64,000 nt of DNA from NCBI GenBank assembly GCA_043756605.1, contig JAYURR010000174.1, positions 4,641 to 68,640 on the forward strand, read 5' to 3'. The notes beneath the pieces are model-generated. The model was not told the DNA's origin and ran no database searches. It saw nothing but the letters and a program-made list of their open reading frames with translations. This document shows, one piece after another, positions 1 to 24,626 of this stretch. Made by a program: the position numbers and the translations under genes. Numbering within the stretch: position 1 is the stretch's first letter; each line of letters opens with the position of its first letter. Source of the DNA: Chitinophagaceae bacterium (GTDB lineage: Bacteria > Bacteroidota > Bacteroidia > Chitinophagales > Chitinophagaceae).

Positions 1-322
1 TAGTAAGCATTTTAGCTGCACCTGCAATGGCATGTGTGTGAGCCGGGATGTTGGCCGCCGTTATAGTATTGTTTTCGGTACCCGACATTTGTCCAAGCTG
101 GTAATTGCTGAGGCCCGGGCCGTTACCGGTGCCAACGGCTACCCTGCTCTGCATATTGGGCAGGGCAAAATTGGTGGTGCCGTTACCACCATAGGTTGTA
201 CCTAAAATTGAAAAGAGGGCCTGGTTTTGTGCTATAGCTAATAACTGCCCGTTGCAGTAGGCCCAAAACCGTGGGTTGAATGTTGCAGCGAACATGCGTA
301 TTTCGCCAATTGTTCCTTCCAT
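1..322 (-). CDS. Phage tail-collar domain protein (microcystin-dependent protein-like), truncated by the window edge
   Basis: Manual translation from ATG at 322: MEGTIGEIRMFAATFNPRFWAYCNGQLLAIAQNQALFSILGTTYGGNGTTNFALPNMQSRVAVGTG...PAHTH, the tail-collar signature. Not in the ORF track because it runs off the edge. Confidence 0.92.
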   Translation of the reverse strand, partial: MEGTIGEIRMFAATFNPRFWAYCNGQLLAIAQNQALFSILGTTYGGNGTTNFALPNMQSRVAVGTGNGPGLSNYQLGQMSGTENNTITAANIPAHTHAIAGAAKMLT

Positions 323-453
323 AATAAGTGAGGTTTAAAGTTAGAGTTAATTAAGGTTAAAAAAGTATTGTACTGTAAAAAAGAATAAATGTAAAAAAAA
401 TATTTTGATATGTCAAGCCCTAAAAAAAAACGGGTGAAAATACCTGCTTCATG

Positions 454-993
454 TTAATCCAAAACCCACTTTATCATAAAAGGGTAAGGTGGTACGTTAA
501 GTAACAATGCATTTTTGTCGTCGGCTGTCATACCTTTCCATTGCAGCATGGGTAATCCGAAATAATTTTTATTGGCAAAATTATCAGCAATATAGCTGCC
601 GCCGCCCCGGTAGCCTTCATCATGAAAAACAACATATGGATCTAAACCCAGGTGACTACACGCTGCATAAGACCAGGCAATGGCCATCATTTCCTCTGCC
701 TCCCGCTGCTCCCTTTTTTCGATAGAAGATGCTGTAAGGGTGGGCCTTACGGCAGCAGGCACCACGGCAATATGCCCTGCCTCGTGTAAAATATCACCGG
801 GATATTTTAGTACTTCCCTGTCAATAATAATAACCCCGTTGCGAATGGAAAGCCCTGGCAAAAAACAGGGCTCTTCTATTTTTTCAAACCTTGTTTCTAT
901 ACCTATTCTGTTTAAAAACAAAATACACTTTTCAAGATATTCATCCAGCGGCACCTCACGGAGTGGGATAGCTTCAGTTTTGTTTTGGTGCAT
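454..993 (-). CDS. HExxH-motif hypothetical protein (putative metalloprotein)
   Basis: 179-aa ORF with GDILHEAGHIA and a downstream EEMMAIAWSYAA; same strand and directly upstream of the tail-collar gene. Confidence 0.75.
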   Translation of the reverse strand: MHQNKTEAIPLREVPLDEYLEKCILFLNRIGIETRFEKIEEPCFLPGLSIRNGVIIIDREVLKYPGDILHEAGHIAVVPAAVRPTLTASSIEKREQREAEEMMAIAWSYAACSHLGLDPYVVFHDEGYRGGGSYIADNFANKNYFGLPMLQWKGMTADDKNALLLNVPPYPFMIKWVLD

Positions 994-1318
994 TTTTATT
1001 TGTTATAATTTTATGTGTGAAGATAAATTACAGCCATCTTAAAAATAAATAATTCTCAACAGCCCTTTATTTTTCGGCGTTTTTATGCCAGATGCCGCAT
1101 ACCTGAAAATAAAATGAAAAACATAGCTGTAAAAACCCTGCAAACAATACCAGCCTATAAAATGCAATAATTTAAAAATCACTAACGATGGCGATAGATT
1201 GCCGTTGCGATATATATAATCAAAAAAACTTTGTTGTTATGGAGGATTTTATTTGCATTGTAATAAGTTAAATACTATTTTGTAGCATTAATATTAAACC
1301 AGAACCAACCTCAGCAAC

Positions 1319-2032
1319 ATGAATACAAGGAGAAAATTCTTATTAAGCGGCAGCATGGCTACCGCTGCTTTGCTTACAGCCAAACCCTTTACGAGCATTG
1401 CCAACAGCCTTAGCCCGGTAACCGGTTTCAGAATCAATAACAATAGCCTGGTGCTGGCACATACAGGTAATGCAATACTTTTTGGCACAGGCCCGGCATT
1501 ACAGCAAATTACAAACCTTAAAAAAATTGGTGCTAACCTCATCATGTTACATGCGGGCAATTCAGCCCCAGCCCTGCAACCTCCATATGATGCCTCTATG
1601 CACGCAGGCGAATCTTTTTCTGTTAATGCTGATGATTACAAAATTATTTACAAAGGCGATATAAAAACAGGCGTTATAACTGCCAACAATAAATCTGCTT
1701 GTGCCGAGAGTATTAATACGCTTGCAGTATATCTTAAAAAAGAAAAAAATTGCCAACTGGTGGTATGCCTTTCTCAACTTGGGTTTAAATCAGAAACCGG
1801 CCTGGATGACCTGACACTTGCAGCTACCTCTACACAGCTTGATATAATTATTGGCGGCCATGCTACCAATTTCTGCAAAAGCCCGATGACTACTCTTAAT
1901 AAAAATAAAGAAGAAGTTATCATTAACCATGCCGGCACTAATGGGTTCGCTTTACGCAAAATTGAAATCGGTTTTGATAAGCAAGGCAGAAAATATCAGC
2001 TTGCATTTACAAGAACCAGTTTGCCGGCCTGA
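1319..2032 (+). CDS. Twin-arginine-leader protein, degenerate 5'-nucleotidase/metallophosphoesterase homolog
   Basis: RRKFLL leader; remnants LAHTGN, LHAGN, YKIIYKGDIKTG, LVVCLSQLG, DIIIGGH follow the order of the 5'-nucleotidase N-terminal domain, but most metal ligands are changed. Confidence 0.7.
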   Translation: MNTRRKFLLSGSMATAALLTAKPFTSIANSLSPVTGFRINNNSLVLAHTGNAILFGTGPALQQITNLKKIGANLIMLHAGNSAPALQPPYDASMHAGESFSVNADDYKIIYKGDIKTGVITANNKSACAESINTLAVYLKKEKNCQLVVCLSQLGFKSETGLDDLTLAATSTQLDIIIGGHATNFCKSPMTTLNKNKEEVIINHAGTNGFALRKIEIGFDKQGRKYQLAFTRTSLPA

Positions 2033-2062
2033 TAATATCTGTGTATTTCAGCAAATTAATTA

Positions 2063-2779
2063 ATGCAGATCATCAAATACCTTCAATTGCCTTTTTATTT
2101 TGATGCAGGTTTATTGCAGCAGGAGGTTGATGCTATATCCCTGATGCAATGGCAACCGCACTACCAGATAAAACACTATGATGGTGAATGGAGTGCCATT
2201 CCATTACGCAGCATTGGCGGCAAGGCCGATGATATCATTATCTCTCCCTCCAACAACCGGGATTACCGGGATACTGTTTTTTTAGAAGGCAGTCCTTATC
2301 TGCAAAAAATATTACAAACCTTTCAATGCACACTGCAGGCAGTGCGGTTGCTGAAACTGAATACAGGCAGCAGTATTAAAGAACACCGTGATGCTGAACT
2401 GAATTTTGAAAACGGTGAAATACGTTTGCATATTCCGGTAATCACGCATGCTGATGTGGAGTTTTTTCTGGACAAAGAAAGATTGTTTTTAAAAGAAGGC
2501 GAATGCTGGTATATGAATTTTAACCTGTTGCATGCCATCAATAATAACAGCCCCGTAAACAGGGTACACCTGGTTATTGATGCGGTGGTAAATGATTGGA
2601 TTAAAGCATTATTCAACAGTGCAGATATTATTGTAAAAAAAGAAACGGAAGACCTTTCACGGGTTTATGATGAAGCAACAAAGAAAGAAATGATACTACA
2701 GTTCAGGGAAATGAATACTGCTGTAAGCAATAAAATGGCCGATGAACTTGAAGCAGAGATGCTATGTACCTCAGCATGA
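2063..2779 (+). CDS. Aspartyl/asparaginyl beta-hydroxylase domain protein (2OG-Fe(II) oxygenase)
   Basis: WSAIPLRS, VRLLKL...IKEHRD (HxD), RLHIPVITH, LHAINN, RVHLVID motifs. Confidence 0.88.
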   Translation: MQIIKYLQLPFYFDAGLLQQEVDAISLMQWQPHYQIKHYDGEWSAIPLRSIGGKADDIIISPSNNRDYRDTVFLEGSPYLQKILQTFQCTLQAVRLLKLNTGSSIKEHRDAELNFENGEIRLHIPVITHADVEFFLDKERLFLKEGECWYMNFNLLHAINNNSPVNRVHLVIDAVVNDWIKALFNSADIIVKKETEDLSRVYDEATKKEMILQFREMNTAVSNKMADELEAEMLCTSA

Positions 2780-2815
2780 CAGAACAAACTTTACAACCCT
2801 TTAGCAACTTAGCGC

Positions 2816-3514
2816 ATGTTTAATAAATTAAAATTGATTAAAGCCATTGTTTACCGGTTTTACAGTTCCATCATCACTTTCATCATTGCATACCTGTTCA
2901 CCAAAAACCTGCTGGCATCTATATCCATCGGCATTATTGATTCTCTGATAAAAATATTTTCTTATTATGCTTTTGATGAAGTATGGGCAAAACTTACCGG
3001 GTTTAAAAACAACCCGGCTGTAATTTTTTTAACTGGTTTAAGCGGTTCGGGTAAAACCACCATTGCCAAAGCGCTGGTTGAAAAATATAAAAAGAAAGGT
3101 GTGATACCGGTACTGCTGGATGGCGATGAAATAAGAAAAGTGATTCACCAGACCGGTTTTGATGAAGAATCGAGAAAGAAGCATAATTTAAATGTGGGTT
3201 ACATGGCATCCTTGCTGGAAAGCCAGGGTAATGTGGTAATTGTATCGTTGATATCACCCTATATAGACATACGGAACGAAATAAGAACCATGTGCAAAAA
3301 ATTTGTTGAAGTACATGTTTGTACCGATATAAAAGTTTGCATACAACGTGACCCCAAAGGTTTGTATGCAAGAGCCATTGCCGGAGAGATAAAAGATTTT
3401 ACGGGGATATCGGCCCCCTATTACGCACCTGAAAACCCAGAAGTTTTACTTGATGCCGGAGTGCTGAGCATTGCAACCTGTACCGATAAAATATTTAAAG
3501 CAGCTAACAAATGA
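2816..3514 (+). CDS. cysC: Adenylyl-sulfate (APS) kinase with N-terminal DUF2061-like membrane domain
   Basis: P-loop FLTGLSGSGKTT, LLDGDEIR, SLISPY, RDPKGLY, FTGISAPY; the first ~58 aa form a hydrophobic hairpin ending YYAFDEVW. Confidence 0.9.
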   Translation: MFNKLKLIKAIVYRFYSSIITFIIAYLFTKNLLASISIGIIDSLIKIFSYYAFDEVWAKLTGFKNNPAVIFLTGLSGSGKTTIAKALVEKYKKKGVIPVLLDGDEIRKVIHQTGFDEESRKKHNLNVGYMASLLESQGNVVIVSLISPYIDIRNEIRTMCKKFVEVHVCTDIKVCIQRDPKGLYARAIAGEIKDFTGISAPYYAPENPEVLLDAGVLSIATCTDKIFKAANK

Positions 3515-3912
3515 GATACAATTTATTTATAGGAAGGTATCAAAGTCCGCACAAGGGGCACATGCATATTTTTGATACTTTTTTAACAGCAGGAAAGCCT
3601 GTATTGATCGCCATCAGAGACATTGAACCAGATGCCGCCAATCCACTAACTGCCGCCGAAGTAAAAACGCTTTGGGAAAAAGTGTATGAAGGTAACCTGT
3701 TGGTGAAAGTGATCATCATACCCGATATTGCATCGGTGAACTATGGAAGAGGTGTTGGTTATGCCATTAATGAGATTGATGTTCCGGAAACCGTTGCAGC
3801 CATATCGGCCACAGAAATAAGGCGGCAGGTAATTGCCGGTGAAGATGGATGGAAGGAATTTGTGGATGGCAATATTCATGAAATGCTGACGGCTTATCTG
3901 CAATCAAAATAA
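3511..3912 (+). CDS. Small HIGH-family (cytidylyltransferase-like) nucleotidyltransferase
   Basis: FIGRYQSPHKGH (HxGH) and ISATEIR motifs; ATGA overlap with cysC. Confidence 0.82.
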   Translation: MRYNLFIGRYQSPHKGHMHIFDTFLTAGKPVLIAIRDIEPDAANPLTAAEVKTLWEKVYEGNLLVKVIIIPDIASVNYGRGVGYAINEIDVPETVAAISATEIRRQVIAGEDGWKEFVDGNIHEMLTAYLQSK

Positions 3913-3987
3913 TTATTTTAGTGAGCTTGCTTTTTTATAATTCAGGAATCATGCTATATTTCAAACAGTTATTCTGTTCTTTGTCTT

Positions 3988-4139
3988 TTACTTTTTTGCT
4001 TCTCCAAAAAAGTAACAAAAAAAGAGCCCCGAAATCGATTACATCCCGATTTCGGGAAGGAGCCCTGATTGAGCTTTTGTACTACTGTAAACTCAAATTC
4101 GGTTCCCTGATTTTTAAGAGTTCAAAAACTGAACCTCTT
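3988..4139. repeat. Intergenic element of three consecutive hairpins
   Basis: ttacttttttg/caaaaaagtaa (3988-4015), cccgaaatcg/cgatttcggg (4028-4056), aagagttca/tgaacctctt (4116-4139). Confidence 0.6.
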
Positions 4140-4176
4140 TTCATAAAAAAACGGATTAGTATTTTATATTTTCAAG

Positions 4177-5145
4177 ATGAGCAATAATTATACAAGTCCT
4201 GTTAAAGGCTGGATTCCAATAAAATTATACGCGGAAGATGAGAGCCTGCTTTGCCGCTGGCTTTATGTTGGCAATAAAGAATTTAAAGAACCTTTTTTTG
4301 ATGAGACCATTTCGGCATGCCGAGCTTTACCAGAAAACGGGCATCTAAAAAGAAGCATGAGCAGCACGGATATGTTGATTGATTTATCAAAAGAGATTGA
4401 CTTTGTTGAACCAACTGCTTTTATATTTCATATCTCCCGCTGCGGCTCTACTTTAATCTCTCAAATGCTGGGCATGCAGCCATCAAATATTATTTTAGCC
4501 GAAGTACCATTTTTTGATGAGTTGTTGCGATATGGGAAGAAGCATAACTGCATGCCAGAGATGTTGCCACAACTTAAGGCTGCCTTTTATTTGTACGGTG
4601 CCGGGCGAAACGAAAATTATAAAAATCTTTTAATTAAAACCGATAGCTGGCATATACATTTTTATGAGGAGTTAAGAGCGTTACACCCTAACGTTCCGTT
4701 TTTTTTATTGTACCGTAAGCCTGATGAAGTATTGCGCTCACAACAAAAAAAAAGAGGCATGCAGGCCATACCCAATTTACTGGAGGCTGAAATTTTTGGA
4801 TTTGATAAAGATAAAATCTCTACCATGCCGTTTGATGAATACATGGGCCTGGTGATAGAAAGTTATATGCTGGCTTTTGAAAATATTTTACAAAAAGATA
4901 AACTTGCTTATGCAATAAACTATCATGATGGTGCCATGCAGATTGTTGATACCATTGCAACTGTTACCGGCTTGCAGATTACAGAAGCAGAAAAACTGCT
5001 GATGCAAAAAAGAGCGGGCTTTCATGCAAAATTTCCCACGCAGGTTTTTAATGAAGTACAGCCACATGAAGCAATGCCTGCTTATTTAAAAAGATCGTTT
5101 GAGCTGTATGATAAAATTGAAGCCAACAGGCAAAACAAAAAATAA
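4177..5145 (+). CDS. Sulfotransferase-like protein
   Basis: FIFHISRCGSTL (5'-PSB-like PAPS-binding loop) and LYRKPDEVLRS (3'-PB-like); lies downstream of the APS kinase. Confidence 0.75.
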   Translation: MSNNYTSPVKGWIPIKLYAEDESLLCRWLYVGNKEFKEPFFDETISACRALPENGHLKRSMSSTDMLIDLSKEIDFVEPTAFIFHISRCGSTLISQMLGMQPSNIILAEVPFFDELLRYGKKHNCMPEMLPQLKAAFYLYGAGRNENYKNLLIKTDSWHIHFYEELRALHPNVPFFLLYRKPDEVLRSQQKKRGMQAIPNLLEAEIFGFDKDKISTMPFDEYMGLVIESYMLAFENILQKDKLAYAINYHDGAMQIVDTIATVTGLQITEAEKLLMQKRAGFHAKFPTQVFNEVQPHEAMPAYLKRSFELYDKIEANRQNKK

Positions 5146-5156
5146 CGGTTAATCAT

Positions 5157-5834
5157 TTACATATCAGCCCACATCCTGAACAAGTTACTATGTGTTTGTA
5201 ACAACAAATTTGTTGCCGGTGCATTGGGCGCCTGCTTAAACAATGCACTGTGTACCTGATTGAGTTGAAATAATATTTGCCGCTGCCCAGGATCTTTTAC
5301 ATTGCTTTGTACCCAGGTAACCGCTGCCACCCTTTCGCCGCTTTTAATTTCATTTACACAATGCAGGTACTGGCATGGATACAGCACTGCATCTCCTTTG
5401 GCAGGTTTAAAATTTGCGGTGCCGGTATCTGACTGGATCATCAGTTCTCCACCTTCGTAGGTTGCAGGGTTGCTTAAAAAAATGGTCATCGCCAGGTCGG
5501 TACGAATTGGAGGGTTGCCCATCATGGGACTATCTACATGCCAGCCGTAATATTTTCCGGTGCTGTATTTACTAACCAAAAAAGGTTGAATATTTTTAGG
5601 CAGTGCGGCAATATTAAACAATGGGCTTTGCGCCAAAGCACCTGTAATTATTTTTTGAATCGCCGCCAGGTTTTCATTATTTGCTTCTATCTGCAAATTA
5701 TTTTTTACCTCTTTTGCAGCCATGCTGGCCGTTAATTTTCCATCCACAAAATTGGCATTTGCTATAAGTGCATCTATTGTTATTAATTCTGCAGCAGTGA
5801 GCAGTTCGGGTATATGCACCAGTTGTTGACTCAT
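5157..5834 (-). CDS. Fe2+/2OG-dependent dioxygenase, PKHD-type (PiuC/YbiX family)
   Basis: FVDGKLTA, YGWHVD (HxD), RTDLAMTIFLS, YEGGEL, LHCV, RVAAVTWVQS. Confidence 0.9.
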   Translation of the reverse strand: MSQQLVHIPELLTAAELITIDALIANANFVDGKLTASMAAKEVKNNLQIEANNENLAAIQKIITGALAQSPLFNIAALPKNIQPFLVSKYSTGKYYGWHVDSPMMGNPPIRTDLAMTIFLSNPATYEGGELMIQSDTGTANFKPAKGDAVLYPCQYLHCVNEIKSGERVAAVTWVQSNVKDPGQRQILFQLNQVHSALFKQAPNAPATNLLLQTHSNLFRMWADM

Positions 5835-5946
5835 AAAATTTATTTTTTTAAAGATAAAAATAACGCAAATAATTACCTTAAATAATTGTAAGCAATCTAT
5901 TTAATAATTATTTCATACAAGACAAATACCAGACACTTCATACTCT

Positions 5947-6034
5947 CTCCATACTCTAACTATGCTTCATCCATACGGCAGCCATGCTTTAGCTATGCTT
6001 TAGCCATGCTTTAGCTATACACTATCTATGCTCC
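5947..6034. repeat. Degenerate 11-bp tandem array (about 8 units)
   Basis: agccatgcttt-agctatgcttt-agccatgcttt-agctatacact-atctatgctcc (5980-6034), preceded in phase by ctccatactct-aactatgcttc-atccatacggc. Confidence 0.7.
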
Positions 6035-6116
6035 TTACTAGTCAACTACCTAGTCCTAAAATATACATGTTATTGTTATTTTACCAATTACACAAACTCT
6101 TTATTATTTTTAACGC

Positions 6117-6590
6117 ATGAAATTTCAATTCTGGAGTGTTGGTAAAAATCATGAGCCTTATGTAAAAGAGGGCATTGAGTTATTTACAAAACGCATCTCC
6201 AATTATTATGCTGTTGAATGGAACATTATTCCCATGCCTAAAAATGCAGCCAGCCTGAGTGAAACAGACCTGAAAAAAAAAGAAGGAGAAATCATAACCG
6301 GGCTTTTGCAAGAAGATGATTACCTGGTGTTGCTTGAAGAAACGGGTAAAATATTAGGCAGCGAAGACCTGGCAAATTTCATTCAGCACCGGGCTAATGA
6401 AAGCACAAAAAATATGGTGTTTTTAATTGGTGGAGCATACGGAGTAAGTGCTGATGTAAAACAACGGGCCAATTACACCTGGAGCTTATCCAAACTTGTT
6501 TTTCCGCATCAACTGGTGCGGTTGATTTTAGCCGAACAGGTTTACAGGGCCTGCAGCATTAACCGAAATGAAAAATATCACCACAGTTAA
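6117..6590 (+). CDS. rlmH: 23S rRNA (pseudouridine-1915-N3) methyltransferase
   Basis: SPOUT motifs FLIGGAYG, WSLSKLVFPHQLVRLILAEQVYRA, KYHH. Confidence 0.96.
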   Translation: MKFQFWSVGKNHEPYVKEGIELFTKRISNYYAVEWNIIPMPKNAASLSETDLKKKEGEIITGLLQEDDYLVLLEETGKILGSEDLANFIQHRANESTKNMVFLIGGAYGVSADVKQRANYTWSLSKLVFPHQLVRLILAEQVYRACSINRNEKYHHS

Positions 6591-6592
6591 AA

Positions 6593-6700
6593 AATTGGCC
6601 CGCAGATTTCGCTGATTACGCAGATTCTAAAAAACTCTTTCTGCGACATCTGCGAAATCTGCGGGCCAATTCATCCGTGAAAATCTGTGCAATCCGTGGC
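6593..6700. repeat. Nonamer-arm extragenic palindrome plus an extra half-arm
   Basis: aattggcccgcagatttcgc (6593-6612) is the inverse of gcgaaatctgcgggccaatt (6652-6671); arms are made of cgcagattt-like 9-mers; followed by atccgtgaaaatctgtgcaatccgtggc. Confidence 0.8.
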
Positions 6701-6740
6701 AAAAACAAAAAAGCCCCGTCCCGTAGATACGGGACAGGGA
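6701..6740 (-). terminator. Intrinsic terminator of the giant T9SS gene
   Basis: gtcccgt-agat-acgggac stem followed by a U-tract on the minus strand. Confidence 0.65.
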
Positions 6741-6764
6741 CTAGCTTATAGTGTACGGATGGAA

Positions 6765-9700
6765 TTATTGTTTTATCAGCTTCTCCACAATGGTTGCATC
6801 ATCTGTTTTAATGTGCAGCATGTAAGGTGCCGATGGAAGTTTATCGAGATCGTTAATGGTAAACCAGTTAAATCCTTTTAAGCCTTTAACCGATTTGCTA
6901 AATACCATACGGCCGTTGATATCAATAAACCTGAAATCAACGGGTGTATTGTGTGTAAGTGTTAAGTACACATCAATTTTACCGGTAAAAGGATTGGGTG
7001 CCACTTTAGTTACCAGTTGCATACCTGCATCAATTCTGATAATCACTATCTGGCTATATTCGAACTTGCCATCAAAATCTACAATCTTTAAGCGGTAATA
7101 ATTTACACCTTTTAGTGGTGCCGGATCTACAAGATCATAACTGGTTGCAGTATTGCTGTTGCCCTTGGCAATTACTGTTGCAAGTTTGGTAAAATTCTGT
7201 CCATCTGCACCACGCTCTACTTCAAAATGTTTGGTATTTAATTCATTGGCTGTTACCCAGTTCAAATCAACCTTTGTACCGTTTAACCGGCCGCTGAAGC
7301 TGATCAGTTTTACGGGCAGTATCTGGCTCCAGGTTACAGTTACCGTTGCAGGCGATGGATCGTATAATCCGGCTGCATCCCTTGCTGCATATTTAAATAC
7401 GGCCTGGTGTGCATCATCATCGGGATCTACCTGTAACAATGCCGGGTTAAAGTTTGTAATTACCTGGTTTAAGGTAGCCGCAATGCCATTATAGTATAAT
7501 ACAGACCTTGTTGGCAATTGGGTAATCATATATGTTTTACCACTGCCCAGTACCCCGTCTTCTGGATCGGTACCTGTTAACCCGCCTGTGATATCATATT
7601 GCACATTGGGGTCATTTCTTGCGTATGTTAAGGTTTTATCATCCGAATCGGGTAAACGTTCTATTCCAAAATTAACTGCGGTAACATTAACTGCGGCTGT
7701 AGTAACCGTAATAATACAGGTTGCTGCACCAGATTTTATACCCGTACCTGCTGCATTATTTACACCGTAGGCATCTCCGGTTGGTGCCCAGTTACCTGCA
7801 ACATAAGATGTACCTGCATCCGCCGGTGGCGAATCGCCGATGTTTACACTGATTGTACTTAAGCGCAGTGTATAATTGGTAAACATATCTGCATTGGCAA
7901 ATGAATAAGCCCCGGTACCACTAATTAAAGTTGTTCTTTGCACAACCTTACCGGTTGAATCAACCAGATATGCAAAAACCGCAGTACCGGTAATATTGCC
8001 AATTGCAGAACCGTTAACCAGGCCATCGGTTAACCCATTGGCATCATGAAACAAGGTGCCGCTGATACTGATTTTATTTTTTGCAATACCAAAATCAAAT
8101 GGTGCCAGGCAGGTTTGTGCACTGGTTGCGGTTATGGCATGTTGCAAAACCGTTGTGGTGTGGTGATAAGGTGGAACAGTTGTTGGATCAAGGCGTGTAA
8201 TATAACATATGGGGTACCTGATGAACTGAATTTTTACATTATCAATATACACCGTATCGGCATCATCTACATTATTATTGGTTAAGAAACGGATATAAGT
8301 TGTTGCTGCAGCATATTGTGTAATATCCTGGTTATAAATATTTACATAAGCGGCATCGGTTGTGCCATCGCCTGCAATTGTAAATACGGTTGCAAAAGCT
8401 GTTCCGTTTGTAGAGGCCTGCACAATCACGTCTTCACCGGCTGTTAAGGTTGCACTTTTTCTGCGGTAAGAGAAACTCATGAATGCATACGAAGCCCCTG
8501 ACAGATTTACCCTTCGGGTTGCTGATACATCATTATCTTTTAACCTGATGGCATTGGTAAAAGCTCCATCTTTATAAATTTCGGCATCTGTGTTTGCTTC
8601 GCTTTGAGCAGGGGTAACGCAAAATGCTGCATTGCCCGGGCCGGTTGAAGGGTCGCCGGCATCTACCCAATCTGTGAGCCATGCTCCAGATCCATCAGAA
8701 CCATTGTTACAGGTTCTGGCACCACCCACACCATCAAAATCATCTTCTACTGTTTTTTCGGGATAAGTTATAAACTGATAAGTACCAGACCCATCAACGG
8801 TAACCGAGTCTTTCAACTCATCCGTATCAATTACGGTATTACAGTTACCATCTACATATAAATACACTTTGCCTCCCGCAACACCGGTACCGCCGTCGTT
8901 ATTAACGCCATCGTCATTTTTATCTAAAAACACGGTACCAGCAATTACGTTTTGTGTAAATGGTGCCGGGCAAATGCTGATATCAACATAAACCGTTGCC
9001 ACATCGCACACAGTGGGCGTAGGTGTGGAGCATACATTGTACTCAAAAGTATCTTTACCGGTATAACCCGTATTAGGTGTATAAATAACCGTACCATTGG
9101 CATTTACAGATACGGTGCCATGTTTGGGCTGCAATAAAGCGGTTGTGCTTACCGAGCCGGGATCTACCACTGCAAGGAAGCCAAAATCGTTTATCAAAAT
9201 AGGTATAGTAACCGGCTGGTTAACCATTGTACGGGCATAATCGTCATTAGCAAAAATGAGTTTTTGTTTACAGAAAGGCTGAATGGTAGAACCCACATCC
9301 CAACTCGGACTACCTACAACTGCTGTAGAAGCATCTTCGCCATAAACCGCTGCCAGTTTAGCGCCGTTGCAGGTAAACACAGCTAAACCGCTCTGATCAT
9401 TATCACTGGCATCGAGTAAGCGCCTGTAATTAAGTGCATTGAGCGTATAAGATACATCATAACGCATACCGCATGGACTAAGCAAACCGGTACTGCCACT
9501 GATATTGCCATTATATTTTACATAAATGGTTGTATTAACTGTTGGTGTAACCCAAACCGGATTATCATTCCTGGTGCCATCTATAGAACCCGGGGCCCAG
9601 GCAATGGTAGCAAAGTCTGTAAGCCTGCTTTCGGCAATCAGGTTAAAAGACCAATCGTATGATGTTCCGGTGTTTCCGCCACCTCCAGGTGTGTAAGAGT

Positions 9701-12700
9701 CTAATATTTCAATAGCAGTAAAAGATTCGCCGGTTGGATTTACAAATTTGTAAGCAGCCGTTGCCGACAAAACAAGTGGAAAACGTATTACAGTTTTAGC
9801 AGGAATAGTTAAAGTGCCGTTAGATGGAATACCTGAAGACCAGTTTATATCTAAAGGCCTGTTTAAACTGTTATATAACATTACCACAGCCGTATCTTTA
9901 ATAGCGGTACTGCTTCCGGTTGTAGGTACCGGCGAGTAATAGGTATTTGAATACCAGGTGGCCGGAAATATAGGTACATCACGTGAGGAGTAATTATCAT
10001 TGCCGCCAAAATGCAGCTCTACACCAATTAATGCCGAAGCTGTAACTGTAGCACCGGATAATACACTGCCATTAACAAATAAAACCTCTCCTTCATTAAT
10101 AGTGGCCGTAGTTTCCAGTGTTCCGTTATTATCCTTATCAATTTCAACAACTGTATTATTCTGTGCTGCTCTTATAAAGAGTGATGTGTACCTGAAATCC
10201 TGGCTGGTAAAGTTCTGGCCTACCGGTATTGTAAATGATGTGCCATAATCTTTAACAGCAGATACATTGGTTTTCATACACTGTACCGCCATAATGGAGG
10301 GTTCTCCACAAACCTGTGTTACTGTTATCTGTCCGCTGGAAGTGATTTTATCTCTTCCATCGTAGAATATATTTGAAACAACCCTGGGATTGGTAGGCAT
10401 TGTATTGTCTAATACAATATTGCCACCGGCAGGGATAATATCAGAAGCATATCCCGGAACAATACCGTTGTAAGGGTTACCATCGCCCCAAACTTTGGTG
10501 GTAGCCTGTAATGGATCCAATGCATTTAGTTCATAACCATCCTCCCACTCATCCCATACTATCGTCATGCCGGGATATGGCATTTTCATACTGATAACCG
10601 TTCTTATATTATTACTTGGCGTAGCCGGACTTCCGGAACTATCCAATGCCATACGGGCTTCATTTTCTGAAAAAGGCAGATAAAACACGTGTGTCTTTGT
10701 TGCTTCCGAGCAGGGATCTATCAGCAAAGGATTTACTGTTAAGTAAATATAAGCTGTTGCACAGGCATTTGTACTATCACAAATCTGGTAAACCAGTGTA
10801 TCCTTACCTGCATAAGATCCATTGGGCAGATAAACCACTTTACCGTTTGATATAAAGCCGGTTCCGTTTCTGGGCTGTGTATTTATGGCAAGTGTAGAAA
10901 CTTTCATATTATTATTGGGATCATAATCATTACCCAAAACATCTACTATTATTGGTGCACCACCTGCCCCGGTGGCAGAATCGTTCAATGCTACCGGCGG
11001 ACAAACCGAGCATATATCAAAAGCCAGCAGATCAGAGTTTTTAATTAAATTTTCATATCCTTCCCTGGCTGTCGCCATCAGGTAATATAAATTGGTTGAG
11101 CCGGGGGTTGTCCATACATATTCATAAGTACGGGTGCAGGTAGTTGAATCTACACAGTTTACCGCATAAGTAGTACCCGGAGGATTAACTCTTAAATCCA
11201 TACCGGTAATATCGCTATAACCAAACGGTGTGGTAACTTTAGCCCTTACATAATAAGTGCTGTTTACCAATCCACTGGTTCTGATGGAGCCGGCCGGATA
11301 TGGTGCATTGTACACATTAAAACTAACAAAATCGATAAAGGTAGAAACCGGCAGCAGGCTTATCCTGGAGGGTTTGCTTGCGCTGTGGTATTCTATCTGG
11401 AACTGTACACCCGGTTGGGCAGAAGTAATATTTAATGCTACAGCCTGGCCCGATGGTACAGTTACGTCGGCACCAAGTGTACCAGTCCAGCTTAATATTT
11501 TTGTACTACTATTATATACGGGGTTGCTTAAACTTATAAAAGTTGTACTGCCGTATTTTAAACTGGCTGTTATAGCCGGATTTACCGGCATGGTACCACT
11601 GGTTACGTTAACATAAACCAGCATTTGTATGGTTTGTGCTTTAATTACCAGGTCGTTGCATAATGCCGGGCTTTGGGTAAATGTGATTGTATTTTGAGAT
11701 GCTGCTGGCTTTATGGGCACTGCTCCTAAAGCCCAGTCTGTTGATGCAGAAGTCCAGTTCATAATTGTAGTTGCTGCACCTGGCTCTGTACTTCCTGCAC
11801 CGGTAATTTCATTACCCGAACTCATATTCCATCTTTGTGTTTGCCCGGCAGTAACTGTAACTGGTTGATTTCTTATTGAAACAACATCATAAACCAGTTC
11901 CCCGCCTGCAGATGTTACATTTACGGACGGGTTTGTTGAACCTGCCTGTTGCGATGCAAATGTTCCTAGCGGAGTAGTTTGGTCTATACCGGTATAGGTT
12001 GTTACATTTACAACTGCACCCCTATCGGGAGCCGAGCTGAAATTAACAACCACATTAGCTGTGCCCGAAGGTGGATTAATCAATCGATAAAGCGCAATAC
12101 GGGCATTGCTATTTAAATTGTTTTCACCAACCAGTGTTAGTGCTGTTGCTCCATAAGTAACACTGGTAACGGTTCTGTTCTTTTGCGAAATACCCACCAG
12201 CATCAGCCTGTTGGCACCTGTACCGGTTGTATGTGCTACGGTTATTGGCATAGTGTTTCCGGTAACCGTATTTGACGCATCTATGGCAATGGGCGCCGTT
12301 GTTGATGAAATGGCATAAGAGGTAGCTGTAGTAGTAATATTAGTTGCTACCGGGTCTATCCTGTCGAGCAACATACCCGGATCGGATAAATACAGCGGCG
12401 TTTGCACCACCGATGGGTTGGCATTAACTATATGTGATGAAGTTGCAGGACCGTTACAACCAGTAGCCGAAGCCGTGATTGCCGAAGATCCAAACCAACT
12501 TGCCACCCAGGTAACCTGTCCGGTAGTTGTATTAATGGTATTACCGCCGGCTAAACTGGCAGCATCTAAACTATAAGTAATGCCTGTATTATTGGTAGCC
12601 GTAGCCGAATAAGTTATGGTTGCAGCACCCTGTGTACGCACCGATTGTATGCCCAACCCAAATACCGGAGTACCTACGGTTGGTGTAATAGTTACGGTAT

Positions 12701-15700
12701 GATTGGCTGTTCTGGGGCCATTGCAACCAGTTGCTGATGCAGTTATGATGGTACTGCCGGTCCAGTTTGCAACATAAGTCACTTCTCCGGTTGAACTGTT
12801 GATTGTATTTCCGGCAGTTATAGCAGCAGCATTCAAACTATAAGTTATACCTGTGGTATTTGTTGCACTTGCAGTATAGGTTACTGTAGCTGCTCCCTGA
12901 CAACGGGTAGATGTGGCACCCAAGGTAAATACCGGAGTACCTACAGTTGGGGTTATAGTTACCACATGTGCTGCAGAAGCAGGCCCATTACAACCTGCTG
13001 CAGAAGCTGTAATGATTGTTGTACCACTCCAGCCTGCAACATACACAACCACACCGGTTGTTGAATTGATGGTGTTACCACCTGTTATGCTGGCTGCATC
13101 AAGAGAATATGTAATAGATGTTGAATTGGAAGCTGTTGCTGTATAACCTACAAAAGCCCCTCCCTGGCAACGGGTGCTGGCAGCCCCCAATGTAAATACC
13201 GGTGTACCTACTGTTGGGGTTATGGTTACGGTATGGTTAGCTGTTGATGGGCCATTACAACCCGCTGCAGTTACTGTAATAATTGAAGTACCCGACCAGG
13301 CTGCATCATAAGTTACAGCACCGGTTGTTGCATTTATTGTATTACCGCCTGTAATACTGGCAGCATCCAGGCTATATGTTCTTGATGTACTGTTGCTTGC
13401 TGTGGCTGTATAGGTAACTGTACCTGCACCCTGGCAACGGGTGGTTGTAGCCCCCAATGTAAATACCGGAGTACCTACGGTTGGTGTTATGGTTACTGTA
13501 TGTATTGCGGTTCTTGGGCCGCTACAACCGGCGGCACTGGCAGTTATGATTGATGTACCACTCCAGCTTGCAACATAGGTTACCACACCCGTTGTTGCAT
13601 TTATACTATTACCGCCCGATATACTGGCGGCATTTAAAGTATAGGTAATTCCGGTTGTAGTTGTTGCTGTAGCATCATATTGTACTGTGCCGGCTCCCTG
13701 GCATCGGGTTGATGTTGCACCCAATGTAAATACCGGTGTACCAACCGTTGGAGTTATAGTTACTGTATGTGTTGCAGTTGATGGCCCGTTACAACCTGTG
13801 GCAGTAACTGTAACTATTGTGGTACCAACCCAGCCTGCAGCATACGTTACTGCACCGGTGGTTGTATTGATGGCATTACCACCAGTAATACTGGCAGCAT
13901 CCAGGCTGTAAGTAATACCTGTATTATTGGTGGCATTTGCAGTATAAGTAACTGTATTAGCATTCTGGCAACGGGTTGATGTAGCCCCCAAAGTAAATAC
14001 AGGTGTACCCACGGTTGGGGTAATGGTTACAGTATGTGTTGCTGTTTTGGGGCCATTACAACCTGTAGCAGTTACTGTAATGGTACTTGTTCCTGTCCAT
14101 GCAGCAACATAACTTACTTCTCCTGTTGATGAATTAATACTGTTTCCACCAGTAATACTGGAAGCATCGAGGCTATATGTTATGCCGGTGTTTGTTGTAG
14201 CTGTTGCTGTATAGGTAACATTTCCGGCTCCCTGGCAACGTGTAGATGTGGCACCAAGTGCAAATACCGGTGTACCAACTGATGCAGTTATGGTTACCAC
14301 ATGCGTTGCAGATGTTGGCCCGCTGCAACCTGCTGCTGTTGCTGTAATGGTAGTAGTACCACTCCAGCCTGCGGCATAAGTAACCGCACCGGTTGTTGTA
14401 TTGATTGAATTACCCGGGAATGCATCTGTTGTTGCATCCAGGGCATAGGTGATACCTTGATTGTTAGCTGCGGTTGCAGTATAAGTTACGGTAGCAGCTC
14501 CCTGGCAACGGGTAGATGTGGCACCCAGCGTAAATGAAGTTGCTCCCAGAATATCGTAGGTTGTAACCGTATGATTGGCCGATCTTGGCCCATTACAACC
14601 GGTTGCAGTTGCTGTAATTACTGAGGTTCCGGTCCATGCGGCAACAAAAGTAACATCACCGTTAATATTATTAATGGTATTACCACCAGCAAGGCTTGCG
14701 GCATCCAGGCTATAAACAATACCTGTGTTATTGGAAGCTGTAGCAGCATATGAAACAGTACCGGCACCAATACATCTTGATGAGGTTGACCCCAAACTAA
14801 ATACAGGGGTGCCAACACCTCCTGTAATAGTAACAATATGCGTTGCTGTTTTAGGGCCTCCACAACCGGTAGCAGTTGCAGTTATGGTAGAAGTACCAGT
14901 CCATAAAACCCAATAGGTTACTGCACCGGTAGCGGCGTTTATAGTATTGCCCCAGGTTAAACTGGTTGCATCCAGGCTGTAGGTTATTCCTGTACTATTG
15001 GAAGCTGTTGCTGTATAGGTTATAGTTCCTGCTCCAAAGCAACGGCTTGAAGTTGCTCCTAATGCAAATACGGGAGTGCCTATGGTTGCTGTAGTTGTAG
15101 CTGTATGATTAGCAGTTGTTGGCCCATTACAGCCCGAAGCTATTGCTGTAATGGTTGAACTGCCAACCCAGGCTACCGTATAATTTACCAATCCGTTTGC
15201 TGAATTGATTGTATTACCCGCAGCTAAACTGGCCGCATCTAAACTGAAAACAATGCCTGTATTATTTGATGCTGTAGCACTGTAATTAACATTTCCACCA
15301 ACCTGGCAACGTGTTGATGTGGCACCCAAGGCAAATACCGGAGTGCCTACTGCAGCTGTAATGGTTACTGTATGGTTTGATGTTCGGGGCCCGTTACAAC
15401 CTGCTGCACTGGCCGTAATGATGGTTGACCCTGTCCAGCCAGCTATATAGGTAACATCGCCGGTTGTAGCATTGATGGTATTACCACCGGTTAATGCTGC
15501 GGCATTCAATGTATAAGTTATGCTTGCTGCATAGGTTGCATTGGCAGTATAAGTAACCGTTGTAGCCCCCTGGCATCGGGTTGATGTTGCACCCAGCGTA
15601 AATACCGGATTTTGCACATCATCATTTGTTGTGGCGGTATGTGTGGCTGTTGATGGGCCGTTACAACCAGATGCTGTAGCTGTTATAATACTAACTCCAA

Positions 15701-17558
15701 CACGTCCTCCATTATAAAATACAGCACCGGTAGATGCATTTATTGTAAGCCCGGCCGCAATACTGGCTGCATCAAGGCTATAAACAATAGCTGTTGAGTT
15801 GGCCGCTGTGGCTGCATAAGTTACTGTAGCACTTGCCTTACAACGGGTAGATGTTGCGCCCAGCGTAAATACAGGTGTAGATACTGTAGGGGTAATAGTA
15901 ACGGTATGCGATGCCGTTTTAGGGCCATTACAACCTGCCGCCGAAACTGTAATTAAAGAGGTTCCGCTCCAGGTGGCTACATAAGTTACATCGCCGGTGG
16001 TTGCATTTATTGTATTGCCTGCGCCCAAACTGGTTGCATCAAGGGCATAAGAAAAACCTGTTGCATTGCTTGCAGTAGCATTATAATTTACGGTACCTGC
16101 TGCCTGGCAGCGGGAAGATATAGCTCCCAGATCAAAAGCAGGGGTGCCCACAGTAGGGGTAATGGTTACGTCATGTTCGGCAGTTAAAGGGATGCCACAA
16201 CTGGCTGCGCTGGCCGTAATGGTTGATGTACCGTTCCAGCCAGCCACATAAGTTACGGCACCGGTTGTTGCATTAATGGTGTTACCAAATGAAATACTCA
16301 ATGCATCCAAACTATAGGTAATACCTGTTGTATTGGAAGCAGTGGCTGTATAGGTTACTGTACCGGCACCCTGGCACCGGGTTGATGCAGGGCCATCATT
16401 AAATACTGGTGTAGTTGCAGGCACACTTGTTGTAGCCAGGTGATCGGCCGTTGTTGGGCCGTTACAACCTGCTGCCGCAACAGTAATTGTAGATATGGCT
16501 TCCCAATTTGCTGTATAGGTAACTGCACCTGTAGCTGCATTAATTGAATTTCCTGCCGCCTCACTTACCGCATCTAATGTATAGGTTAAACCGGTATTAT
16601 TAGAAGCAGAGGCTGTATAGGTTACTATGCCTGCGCCCTTACAACGCAAAGATGTGCCGCCCAGGCCAAATACCGGGGTACCCACATTTGGTGTAATAGT
16701 AACAGCTATGCTGCCTGCGCCTGCACTCCATGCAAAAGTTGTATTATCCCGTGAGCGTACGTAATAAGTACCTGATGTATTAACTGTATAAGATGAAGTT
16801 GAATTAGCTGTACTTGTACCCGCAGCAGTTGTTTGCCAATACCAGGTTTCGCCAACGGGTGGCGTACCTGTAAAATTCATGGTTACACCTGGCGAAGCAC
16901 ATTGTGGCGAATTGGAAGTTGGGTTGGCCGGATTAGCAGGCACAGGTACAGCGGTATTTACAGTACCATTTAAAGTAACTTCATCATTTCTCCAGTTAAC
17001 TAACAGCGCAGTATTTACATTTAATAAATAAAACCTGAACGTAACCGCACCAATATTTGTAAAACTGCCTGCTGGCAGGTTGATTACATCGGTTTGCATA
17101 ATTAATGTAACCGTATCCACAGCAATATTTGAGGTAAAATTATCAAGACTTGAACGTAAAACCCATTTGGTAACACCGCTTGCCGGGTCTCTATCATAAC
17201 GCTGGTTGAGAGACAGTTGAGTAAGTGTTAGATTATATCCTGAGGACGGCGTAACGGTAAATCCAAAGTACTCACTGGTGTTTACTGTATTGGTACCATT
17301 TGCCCAGTCCTGCGTTTCAAACTCGTTCGTCCGGGCTTTACAACTTATTCCTCCGGCAAAAACATAGTTACTAAATGTTGCATTAGCAGGCTGGGTGGTA
17401 ACAGCGGGATTTTGATGAGGGCAGGTTCCGAATCCTGTAAAGGAATAGTAACCCAACTGAGCTGTGGTTGTTAAGCTCAATGTAAACACCAAAAACCCTG
17501 TTATAAGGGCCTTTAATTGCTTTTGGAATATATTCCGGTTAGTAAAAATTGGTTTCAT
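6765..17558 (-). CDS. Giant (~3597 aa) T9SS type-A-sorted surface protein/adhesin
   Basis: Start moved to ATG 17558 ([11 protein letters not shown]...[12 protein letters not shown] signal peptide). Contains 16 Thr-rich Ig/PKD-like repeats, cadherin-like Ig domains (VALNDSA...DVLGND; ANDDYA...ILIND), an IgGFc-binding-like region, an SdrD-B-like domain and a C-terminal LPVKL...APNPFTG...KLIKQ sorting domain. Confidence 0.9.
   Translation of the reverse strand: [3597 protein letters not shown]
12420..16694 (-). repeat. 16 tandem 89-aa (267-bp) intragenic repeats
   Basis: Consensus [30 protein letters not shown]...[39 protein letters not shown].HTVTI; tgtaaataccgg recurs at 13191, 13458 and 13725 (267-bp spacing). 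Confidence 0.95.
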
Positions 17559-18017
17559 GTTGCTTTTATTTAGGATAACAGTGGATAAACTTTTATAAAC
17601 TATGTTTATAAAATCAATTTTTAAATACTTAAAAAAAATTGGTAAATAAAGCCATGCTTTTGCAGTTAGGGGCTGCACATAACCTGTAAACTTGTGTAAG
17701 TCTGGCTTCATTTTGTTTGGATATTGGTTAAATTCAAATTGTTAATAACTAACTAACTAACTGATAATCATAGCATTTAATAGATATTCTACAAAAAACA
17801 GTGTAGAATAACAACTACATAAACGTAATTATTGTGCAATTAGTATTAATACTTGGTAGTTTTTTCACTAACCCTGCATCAACATTTTAATTTTATGCCG
17901 TGGCAGATACGGTATTTTATTTTGCAGGGATTTTGCTCCTTAAAAAAACGATATCTTTTAAACAAACGGAATGGTTTAGATTTGGCTCCCGATAATTAAC
18001 GGGCTAAAAACAAACAC

Positions 18018-24422: not shown

Positions 24423-24626
24423 ATTCAGTAGTTTTATGGCTGTAATTTTCAAAGATTGATGTTATCAATTTGTAACCGGAAGGTTAAGAAAATATTATTT
24501 GCATTCAATTGGTCTTCAGTTGCCGATTTTATGATGATTTTTCGATTGAAAAAAGTAAGCGGTAGAGAAATCATTATTTTTTATATTTGCTGTTTGCTAA
24601 ACGCATGATGACAACCCGGAAAGGAT

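Follow-up and report, generated by a model that had tools for sequence, protein, structure and literature searches.

A conserved hydroxylase and sulfotransferase gene cluster accompanying tail-collar proteins in Bacteroidota

Why should a bacterium of the Chitinophagaceae keep a gene for a phage-type tail-collar protein beside two Fe(II)/2-oxoglutarate (2OG) hydroxylases, an adenylyl sulfate (APS) kinase and a sulfotransferase? This question is raised by the gene cluster at the left end of a 64,000-nucleotide stretch of contig JAYURR010000174.1 (assembly GCA_043756605.1, positions 4,641 to 68,640), hereafter called the window, the DNA of which stems from sediment and freshwater-sediment metagenomes. 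The original prediction for this locus had seen a pathway that hydroxylates and then sulfates a protein or surface substrate, and all eight genes it had named were found at their positions and on their strands by open reading frame (ORF) listing, translation and family scans (Table 1). The comparison with related loci described here indicates that the system is real, conserved and uncharacterised, and that the cluster very probably hydroxylates and then sulfates a protein.

Linkage and fusion of hydroxylase and sulfotransferase genes

The conservation survey scanned one genome per species and returned at least 581 loci with a relative of the sulfotransferase, of which the best 80 were fetched. 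The window proteins were placed on these loci by tblastn and all ORFs of the loci, called from ATG starts only, were clustered by single linkage, a procedure that merged the hydroxylase and sulfotransferase families via fusion proteins. The 80 loci belong to Chitinophagaceae, Sphingobacteriaceae (Mucilaginibacter, Pedobacter, Parapedobacter), Cytophagales (Spirosoma, Rudanella, Arcicella) and Saprospiraceae. Linkage was counted in the 44 loci that extend 8 kb or more on either side of the sulfotransferase gene, taking partner genes within 8 kb. The hydroxylase of the aspartyl/asparaginyl hydroxylase (AspH) type is encoded in 39 of these 44 loci and collar genes in 35; the two occur together in 35/44, collars alone in none and the AspH-type gene without a collar in four. 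The APS kinase was found in 30/44 loci, a protein with a HExxH motif in 22/44 and a second hydroxylase of the PiuC type in 15/44. As a rough chance expectation, ten collar genes per 5-Mb genome would place one of them within 8 kb of a given gene in about 3% of the cases. Gene order and strand follow at least six arrangements across Chitinophagia, Sphingobacteriia, Cytophagia and Saprospiria, hence plain synteny cannot account for the linkage. The cluster genes are functionally linked and not neighbours by chance. Non-occurrence in other genomes had been named in advance as the outcome that would count against the idea of one conserved functional unit; the genes do co-occur, which bears this idea out, and the tail-collar proteins proved to be the constant non-enzymatic partner of the enzymes.

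The collar domain is a phage domain, and the collar proteins of the cluster are full-length homologues (about 34% identity) of minor tail proteins from Microbacterium and Arthrobacter phages. This would fit the remnant of a prophage or tailocin, marked by the collar gene, with the metabolic genes as accidental neighbours. However, no other phage gene was found in the window or in the 80 loci, no homologue of the sulfotransferase exists among 50,697 phage records, and the association persists across bacterial classes although genes have been rearranged and fused. The conserved linkage and the lack of other phage genes effectively refute a phage remnant or a chance assembly, and we regard such an explanation as extremely improbable.

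The gene fusions bear on the chemistry as well. An exhaustive profile search of 1.8 billion representatives assigned 539 clusters (50% identity) to the sulfotransferase family at E<=1e-30. Seven of the best 150 family representatives are long proteins, and all seven are fusions of a PF05118 hydroxylase domain with the sulfotransferase. At locus L061 the hydroxylase and the sulfotransferase form a single 560-aa protein, L066 encodes a sulfotransferase-PhyH dioxygenase fusion, and the 909-aa protein P0411, one of the seven, joins a methyltransferase-like domain, a PF05118 hydroxylase and the sulfotransferase; its N-terminal part is, by inspection, homologous to a separate 331-aa gene in another locus (L020:11243-12238). 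These three architectures strongly argue that hydroxylation and sulfation act one after the other on the same substrate. The coupling of the two reactions, which the original prediction had assumed, is thereby supported; collectively, the linkage and the coupled chemistry are strongly supported.

Only part of the conserved module lies within the window; it continues past the left edge, where the locus was reconstructed from the close relatives L002-L012. In close relatives, the collar genes are followed on their 3' side and on the same strand by genes for a formyltransferase and for a Peripla_BP_6 (Leu/Ile/Val-binding-like) protein without signal peptide, for example at L003:2537-4632 (-). Each of these two genes occurs in 25/44 loci, and they accompany the collars across classes in rearranged orders. 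The formyltransferase combines PF00551 and PF02911 and keeps the conserved N-x-H...D residues, which we read as the catalytic triad of a presumably intact enzyme. Further out, at the 3' end of the strand of the collar operon, the related loci usually carry a gene for a type IX secretion cargo protein. PhyH dioxygenases are encoded in 14 related loci and a methyltransferase in 5, neither of them in the window. In a second variant of the cluster, seen at 9 loci, the sulfotransferase stands next to a 300-aa type IX cargo protein, another protein with a twin-arginine translocation (Tat) signal, one collar and a leucine-rich repeat protein.

The hydroxylate-then-sulfate interpretation of the window is the rediscovery of a prediction published in 2010. 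In a purely computational study, Iyer, Abhiman, de Souza and Aravind (NAR 2010, PMC2938197) predicted neighbourhoods of beta-hydroxylases, PhyH enzymes and sulfotransferases, several of which also encode 3'-phosphoadenylyl sulfate (PAPS) synthetases and tail-collar or glycine-rich collagen-like peptides, and proposed that a co-encoded protein is hydroxylated and then sulfated. The likeness to the neighbourhoods described there comprises the beta-hydroxylase, the sulfotransferase, a gene for PAPS synthesis and a collar of the T4 gp12 type, as well as PhyH and the methyltransferase in relatives. The features by which those neighbourhoods are recognised, i.e. a PF05118 gene linked to a sulfotransferase gene, a collar gene and a gene for PAPS synthesis, are all present in the window, where the first two are neighbours on the same strand and the APS kinase gene represents the last. 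That the same prediction was reached independently in 2010 counts in favour of a modified protein. The passages of the 2010 paper that deal with these neighbourhoods name no Bacteroidota example and do not give the breadth of the system in Bacteroidota, and the HExxH protein, the two Tat-signal proteins, PiuC, the kinase-coupled nucleotidyltransferase and the pair of formyltransferase and binding protein are absent from them. The window adds a Chitinophagaceae-like sediment bacterium. Glycine-rich collagen-like ORFs were found in none of 11 examined loci without collars. The statement of the original prediction that the gene combination has no characterised product appears to be still true; no experimental study of the collar proteins or of the cluster was found in the literature searched.

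Enzymes and partner proteins

The sulfotransferase carries the motifs expected for binding of PAPS. The 5'-phosphosulfate binding (5'-PSB) loop SRCGSTL and the 3'-phosphate binding (3'-PB) motif RKPxEVxxS are conserved, the latter reading RKPDEVLRS in the window, and the residues D156, S157, W158, H159 and H161 are invariant in the family alignment. An AlphaFold2 model of the protein is of moderate quality, with a predicted local distance difference test score (pLDDT) of 65; Foldseek searches with this model retrieved PAPS sulfotransferases at probability 0.99, human TPST2 included. At the level of a predicted structure this confirms the sulfotransferase fold, and it does not reveal the acceptor. 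When PDB sequences were searched with a profile of the aligned sulfotransferases, no sulfotransferase appeared at E<0.1; the only match, a marginal one, was the sulfotransferase-like domain of a polyketide synthase (E=0.19).

Regarding the supply of PAPS, the original prediction had credited the cluster with its own sulfate activation, which holds for one of the two steps. The APS kinase scores 181.2 bits against TIGR00455, well above the curated cut-off of 138.7, and has the P-loop GLSGSGKTT; its N-terminal DUF2061 (PF09834) is a predicted membrane-protein family. The start of the following nucleotidyltransferase gene overlaps the kinase stop by 4 nt (ATGA, window positions 3511-3514), and the same overlap exists in 21/21 related loci. 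The nucleotidyltransferase accompanies the long, DUF2061-containing form of the kinase in 20/24 cases, and loci with a short kinase are without it; it is also missing from most of the related loci, including most of those outside Chitinophagaceae. The stretches FIGRYQSPH-GH and ISA..IR are invariant in 22 homologues, as are the motifs (H/T)xGH and ISxTxxR. However, its profile matches archaeal nicotinamide mononucleotide adenylyltransferases (NMNATs; E=4e-7) and no ATP sulfurylase, hence sulfate activation is demonstrated for the kinase step only. ATP sulfurylases (Sat, CysD/CysN) were also not found among the scanned ORFs of 18-30 kb. It is chemically reasonable to regard the 133-aa nucleotidyltransferase as a candidate sulfate adenylyltransferase. 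The NMNAT-like protein could represent a minimal, so far unrecognised form of this enzyme, which together with the DUF2061-kinase would make up a compact PAPS synthase dedicated to protein sulfation.

The AspH-type hydroxylase looks active, because the residues of the HxD...H...R signature (H108-x-D110, H156 and R166) are invariant in 65 orthologues. Its best PDB matches are L-proline cis-4-hydroxylase (4p7w, 3e-8) and proline 3-hydroxylase (1e5r, 9e-7), with which the HxD...H iron ligands and the 2OG-binding arginine align. Both of these enzymes use free proline, and, unlike the window protein, neither is encoded beside sulfotransferases or structural proteins. In phmmer searches human AspH gave no match to the window hydroxylase. 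The label 'Asp/Asn' is therefore a family name only, and the beta-hydroxyls on Asp or Asn that had been expected from the Pfam name were overstated; the type of the modified residue is unproven. While the linkage and the coupled chemistry of the original interpretation stand, 'own sulfate activation' and 'Asp/Asn' went too far, given the NMNAT-like match and the free-proline relatives. The second hydroxylase is clearly assigned, since PiuC reaches 244.8 bits against NF003974 with a cut-off of 143. PiuC genes also occur at varying positions in the clusters of Parapedobacter (L054), Arcicella (L066) and L058.

Judged from the layout of the close relatives, the collar gene truncated at the window start lies closest to the promoter among two or three tandem paralogues of about 180 aa, and the part that is present shows 80-92% identity to the complete first collar gene of L002-L012. 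An alignment of 113 collar proteins shows that the motifs of the gp12 collar are kept and that HxH, the zinc site of T4 gp12, is invariant. P161 and P176 are likewise invariant, the C-terminus reads G(I/V)(F/Y)P(S/A)RN (e.g. GIFPSRN) with the final Asn in 111/113 proteins (e.g. L003:4785-6497), and residues of about 100-155 form a hypervariable segment rich in Gly, Ser, Thr and Asn. The collar proteins have no signal peptide. In the clade of the window the three tandem paralogues correspond to three old orthologous groups in fixed order, and the collar copies in Parapedobacter and Filimonas are recent duplicates. Collar domain and HxH metal-binding motif are shared with T4 gp12 and with the minor tail proteins of the actinophages; in contrast to these, the collars of the cluster are chromosomal, lie outside any phage context, exist in one to three tandem copies and always stand beside modification enzymes.

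Two further proteins of the window are without an assigned family. In the HExxH protein H70, E71, H74 and E100/E101 are invariant in 24 homologues, and its gene takes varying positions in the loci that carry it. A Foldseek search of PDB with its AlphaFold2 model (pLDDT 82) returned no significant match (best E=0.19), but zincin metalloproteases or IrrE/PprI-type proteins (PprI/IrrE, selecase, MATCAP, BlaR1) make up seven of the ten weak matches ranked highest. The protein is probably a small gluzincin-type metallopeptidase, an assignment we treat as putative. The Tat-signal protein carries the motif T-R-R-K-F-L, its RR being invariant in 28/28 orthologues and followed by a hydrophobic stretch. 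Its body is poorly conserved and degenerate, with few residues besides RR kept and, by inspection, without the usual metal-binding motifs; residues 130-223 have weak NCBIfam matches (about 20 bits) to 5'-nucleotidase and SoxB, and neither Pfam nor PDB offered a match. The PDB sequence searches with the HExxH and Tat-leader proteins yielded noise only. When the two variants of Tat proteins found beside collars were compared by hhalign (window:1319-2032 versus L040:8268-8861), only the 26-residue signal was aligned. The occurrence of two unrelated Tat-signal families beside collars without a signal peptide suggests that the collars may be co-exported by the Tat pathway.

The modified substrate

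The sequences themselves show the gene families, active sites that are intact, the conservation of the linkage and the fusion proteins, and the identity of the substrate is unproven. We favour the interpretation that the cluster serves to tailor domesticated tail-tip ('collar') proteins of phage type, with the collars themselves being modified, and consider the chance that this is correct to be about even. The AspH-type and PiuC hydroxylases, joined by PhyH enzymes in relatives, would hydroxylate side chains of the collars in the cytoplasm, most likely in the variable tip region rich in Gly, Ser, Thr and Asn or at an invariant proline or asparagine. The sulfotransferase would esterify the installed hydroxyls with PAPS made locally by the APS kinase, to which either the housekeeping ATP sulfurylase or the coupled nucleotidyltransferase of 133 aa would supply APS. 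The gluzincin-like HExxH protein may trim or mature the collar proteins, and the zinc-bound, folded and modified collar trimer would then be exported, possibly escorted by the adjacent Tat-signal protein; both the order of these maturation steps and the export route are what we infer from the gene content. This would yield a surface lectin or adhesin tip of negative charge, to which the formyltransferase, PhyH dioxygenases and methyltransferase of relatives could add more modifications. A protein substrate is favoured by the presence of three peptide-type hydroxylase families together with a putative metallopeptidase; non-ribosomal peptide synthetases (NRPS), ATP-grasp or other backbone-forming enzymes were not found in the loci. 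On the side of the collars, the kept HxH metal site, the hypervariable segment, the full-length homology to phage minor tail proteins, the fixed order of the paralogues in the clade of the window and the two Tat-signal families next to collars count in the same direction.

In this regard it might be possible that the collar trimers, which have no signal peptide and would be modified in the cytoplasm, leave the cell by Tat 'hitch-hiking' on the adjacent escort proteins. The complete scenario, in which a minimal sulfate adenylyltransferase and Tat hitch-hiking of the collars together give rise to a surface protein with O-sulfated hydroxy-amino acids, is speculative, and we judge it to be rather unlikely. 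To our knowledge, such a modification has not been described in any organism.

Several points weigh against the collars as substrate. Four of the 44 loci have the hydroxylase and the sulfotransferase but no collar within 8 kb. A distinct clade of sulfotransferases (L026, L033, L034, L036, L046, L048, L056) is accompanied only by a convergent gene for a short APS kinase and otherwise by unrelated conserved neighbours, among which collar and hydroxylase genes do not occur; this clade is probably a paralogous subfamily with another acceptor. TPST2, an enzyme that modifies proteins, is among the Foldseek matches with the lowest root mean square deviation (about 6.3 A), yet it is not top-ranked, and with a model pLDDT of only 65 the resemblance to TPST is not diagnostic. 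The nearest solved relatives of the AspH-type hydroxylase act on free proline and not on proteins, and a gene for a binding-protein-like product next to an intact formyltransferase would also suit the chemistry of small molecules. Finally, the collars may use or bind the product instead of being the substrate.

The main rival to modified collars is a small-molecule pathway, in which a free amino acid or short metabolite would be hydroxylated and O-sulfated, in relatives also N-formylated or methylated, and the collars would bind, display or respond to the product. We consider it possible, albeit doubtful. It is in line with free L-proline 4- and 3-hydroxylases being the best solved relatives of the hydroxylase, with the top NCBIfam match of the latter, 'putative nonproteinogenic amino acid hydroxylase', although this match lies far below the cut-off, with the cytoplasmic Leu/Ile/Val-binding-like gene and the formyltransferase gene adjoining the collars in related loci, and with the sulfotransferase clade that occurs without collars. 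However, conserved backbone-forming, activating or exporting enzymes (NRPS, ATP-grasp, ligase, transporter) are lacking in the loci, three hydroxylase families plus a putative peptidase suit a polymer better, and the collar linkage in 35/44 loci would be left without obvious reason.

Alternatively, the cluster might modify another surface macromolecule, such as a neighbour secreted by the type IX secretion system (T9SS), a glycan or a lipid of the LpxO/OlsC type, which would then be bound by the collar trimer. T4 gp12, the prototype of the collar proteins, binds lipopolysaccharide, the APS kinase carries a predicted membrane-protein family at its N-terminus, and genes for T9SS cargo directly adjoin the collar operon in both main variants of the cluster. 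The T9SS proteins are absent from many loci and perhaps not orthologous, because they were grouped by single linkage, probably via shared sorting or repeat domains. Moreover, T9SS cargo passes through Sec in an unfolded state when it traverses the inner membrane, but chemistry that depends on PAPS and 2OG takes place in the cytoplasm. A weak match of the hydroxylase to LpxO could be taken to favour a lipid; its 22 bits are far under the cut-off of 500, and the assignment as an LpxO/OlsC-type lipid A hydroxylase was rejected. Taken together, the modification of another macromolecule appears unlikely.

The favoured modification of the collar proteins has functional counterparts in other systems. 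RaxST of Xanthomonas oryzae is a PAPS-dependent sulfotransferase that acts on the ribosomal peptide RaxX and has dedicated genes for PAPS supply, RaxPQ. It sulfates tyrosine directly, without a hydroxylase, and its short, leader-containing peptide is exported by a peptidase-containing ABC transporter; such a leader peptide and transporter are lacking in the present cluster, which in turn has hydroxylases. Sulfotransferases clustered with sulfate-activation genes are also known from NodH with NodPQ in Sinorhizobium meliloti and from the BT0416 cluster of Bacteroides thetaiotaomicron. Both employ a canonical ATP sulfurylase of the CysD/CysN type and act on lipo-chitooligosaccharide or steroids, whereas the APS kinase is the sole canonical component in the present case, with proteins and protein hydroxylases as partners. 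The comparison thus stays at the level of functional analogies, and these systems are not architectural relatives. In eukaryotes, AspH modifies EGF domains, and collagen prolyl 4-hydroxylase (P4H) and TPST also belong to the tailoring enzymes. The likeness to them lies in the superfamilies, i.e. PF05118, P4H-like and Sulfotransfer_3-type folds, and in their action on secreted structural or adhesive proteins. We know of no established eukaryotic protein modification in which Asp, Asn or Pro is first hydroxylated by an enzyme and the new hydroxyl is then sulfated.

Gene layout, surroundings and significance

The features of the cluster are compiled in Table 1. None of the cluster genes recurs in the other 58 kb of the window. 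Sigma-70-like promoter matches in 1-6800 are not above expectation (24 versus 21.2 expected from shuffling), the Bacteroidota-type motif TAnnTTTG is absent from the divergent intergenic region 994-1318, and Rfam returned no credible RNA element within 1-7000. The spacer upstream of the sulfotransferase gene is 264 bp long compared to about 25 bp in most close relatives, and it contains a hairpin with a 12-bp stem that reads as a terminator for the minus strand. A repeat or mobile element was considered for this spacer and rejected, because it is a single copy in the window and common only to L011, where the equivalent spacer has 68% identity.

Table 1. Genes and intergenic features of the hydroxylase and sulfotransferase cluster (coordinates are window positions)
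Feature	Position	Strand	Evidence or remark
Tail-collar protein gene, 5' part (107 codons)	2..322	-	PF07484 E=6e-26; truncated at window start
HExxH protein, 179 aa, motif HEAGH	454..993	-	Motif; without Pfam, NCBIfam or PDB sequence match
Divergent intergenic region, 325 bp, presumed promoters	994..1318		Gene layout
Twin-arginine (Tat) signal protein, 237 aa, start MNTRRKFLL	1319..2032	+	RR motif
Fe(II)/2-oxoglutarate hydroxylase, AspH/proline-hydroxylase family	2063..2779	+	PF05118 54 bits, cut-off 22.6
APS kinase (CysC type) with N-terminal DUF2061	2816..3514	+	PF01583 2.6e-48; PF09834 2.6e-12; TIGR00455
Nucleotidyltransferase, 133 aa	3511..3912	+	HxGH and ISATEIR motifs
Spacer, 264 bp, strong hairpin 4027-4057	3913..4176		Layout of relatives compared
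PAPS-dependent sulfotransferase, 322 aa	4177..5145	+	PAPS motifs; PF13469 26.3 bits, cut-off 27
PiuC/YbiX-type (PKHD, prolyl-4-hydroxylase-like) Fe(II)/2OG hydroxylase	5157..5834	-	NF003974; PF13640; PF18331; convergent with the sulfotransferase gene

To the right, the cluster is followed by rlmH, a gene for a 3648-aa protein (6765-17711, minus strand) and then housekeeping genes. Between rlmH and the giant gene lies a palindromic hairpin (6594-6670) that matches the microRNA family mir-981 on both strands with E of about 1e-6 but does not reach the gathering score; in all likelihood it acts as a terminator in both directions and is not an RNA gene. The 3648-aa protein consists of dozens of Thr/Ala/Gly-rich repeats of about 90 aa and is probably a substrate of type IX secretion, because ORF clustering placed it among the cargo proteins of this system. 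Several close relatives also have rlmH followed by large proteins from the same ORF cluster. Further downstream, a choice-of-anchor I domain protein (22917-24452, minus strand) and a CHU_C type IX secretion protein (28518-30356, minus strand) are encoded amid housekeeping genes (tilS, etfAB, rhomboid), and no link of these two proteins to the cluster was seen.

The prediction of such neighbourhoods in 2010 will make the present cluster no surprise to the specialist; its chemistry, should it be confirmed, would be novel. Soil and freshwater Bacteroidota widely harbour the system, and at least 581 genome loci carry a relative of the sulfotransferase. It also occurs in cultured strains, e.g. of Pedobacter terrae (DSM 17933), Spirosoma luteum (DSM 19990), Filimonas zeae, Flavisolibacter nicotianae and Parapedobacter indicus, hence a 16-year-old computational prediction becomes directly testable. 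This prediction also bears on the proposed bacterial origin of the tailoring enzymes of the eukaryotic extracellular matrix. Moreover, the cluster offers a candidate for a non-canonical ATP sulfurylase and several proteins without a family. Should the modification of the collars prove true, hydroxylation-dependent sulfation of proteins would for the first time become accessible to experiment in a bacterium, with a domesticated phage receptor-binding module as its target.

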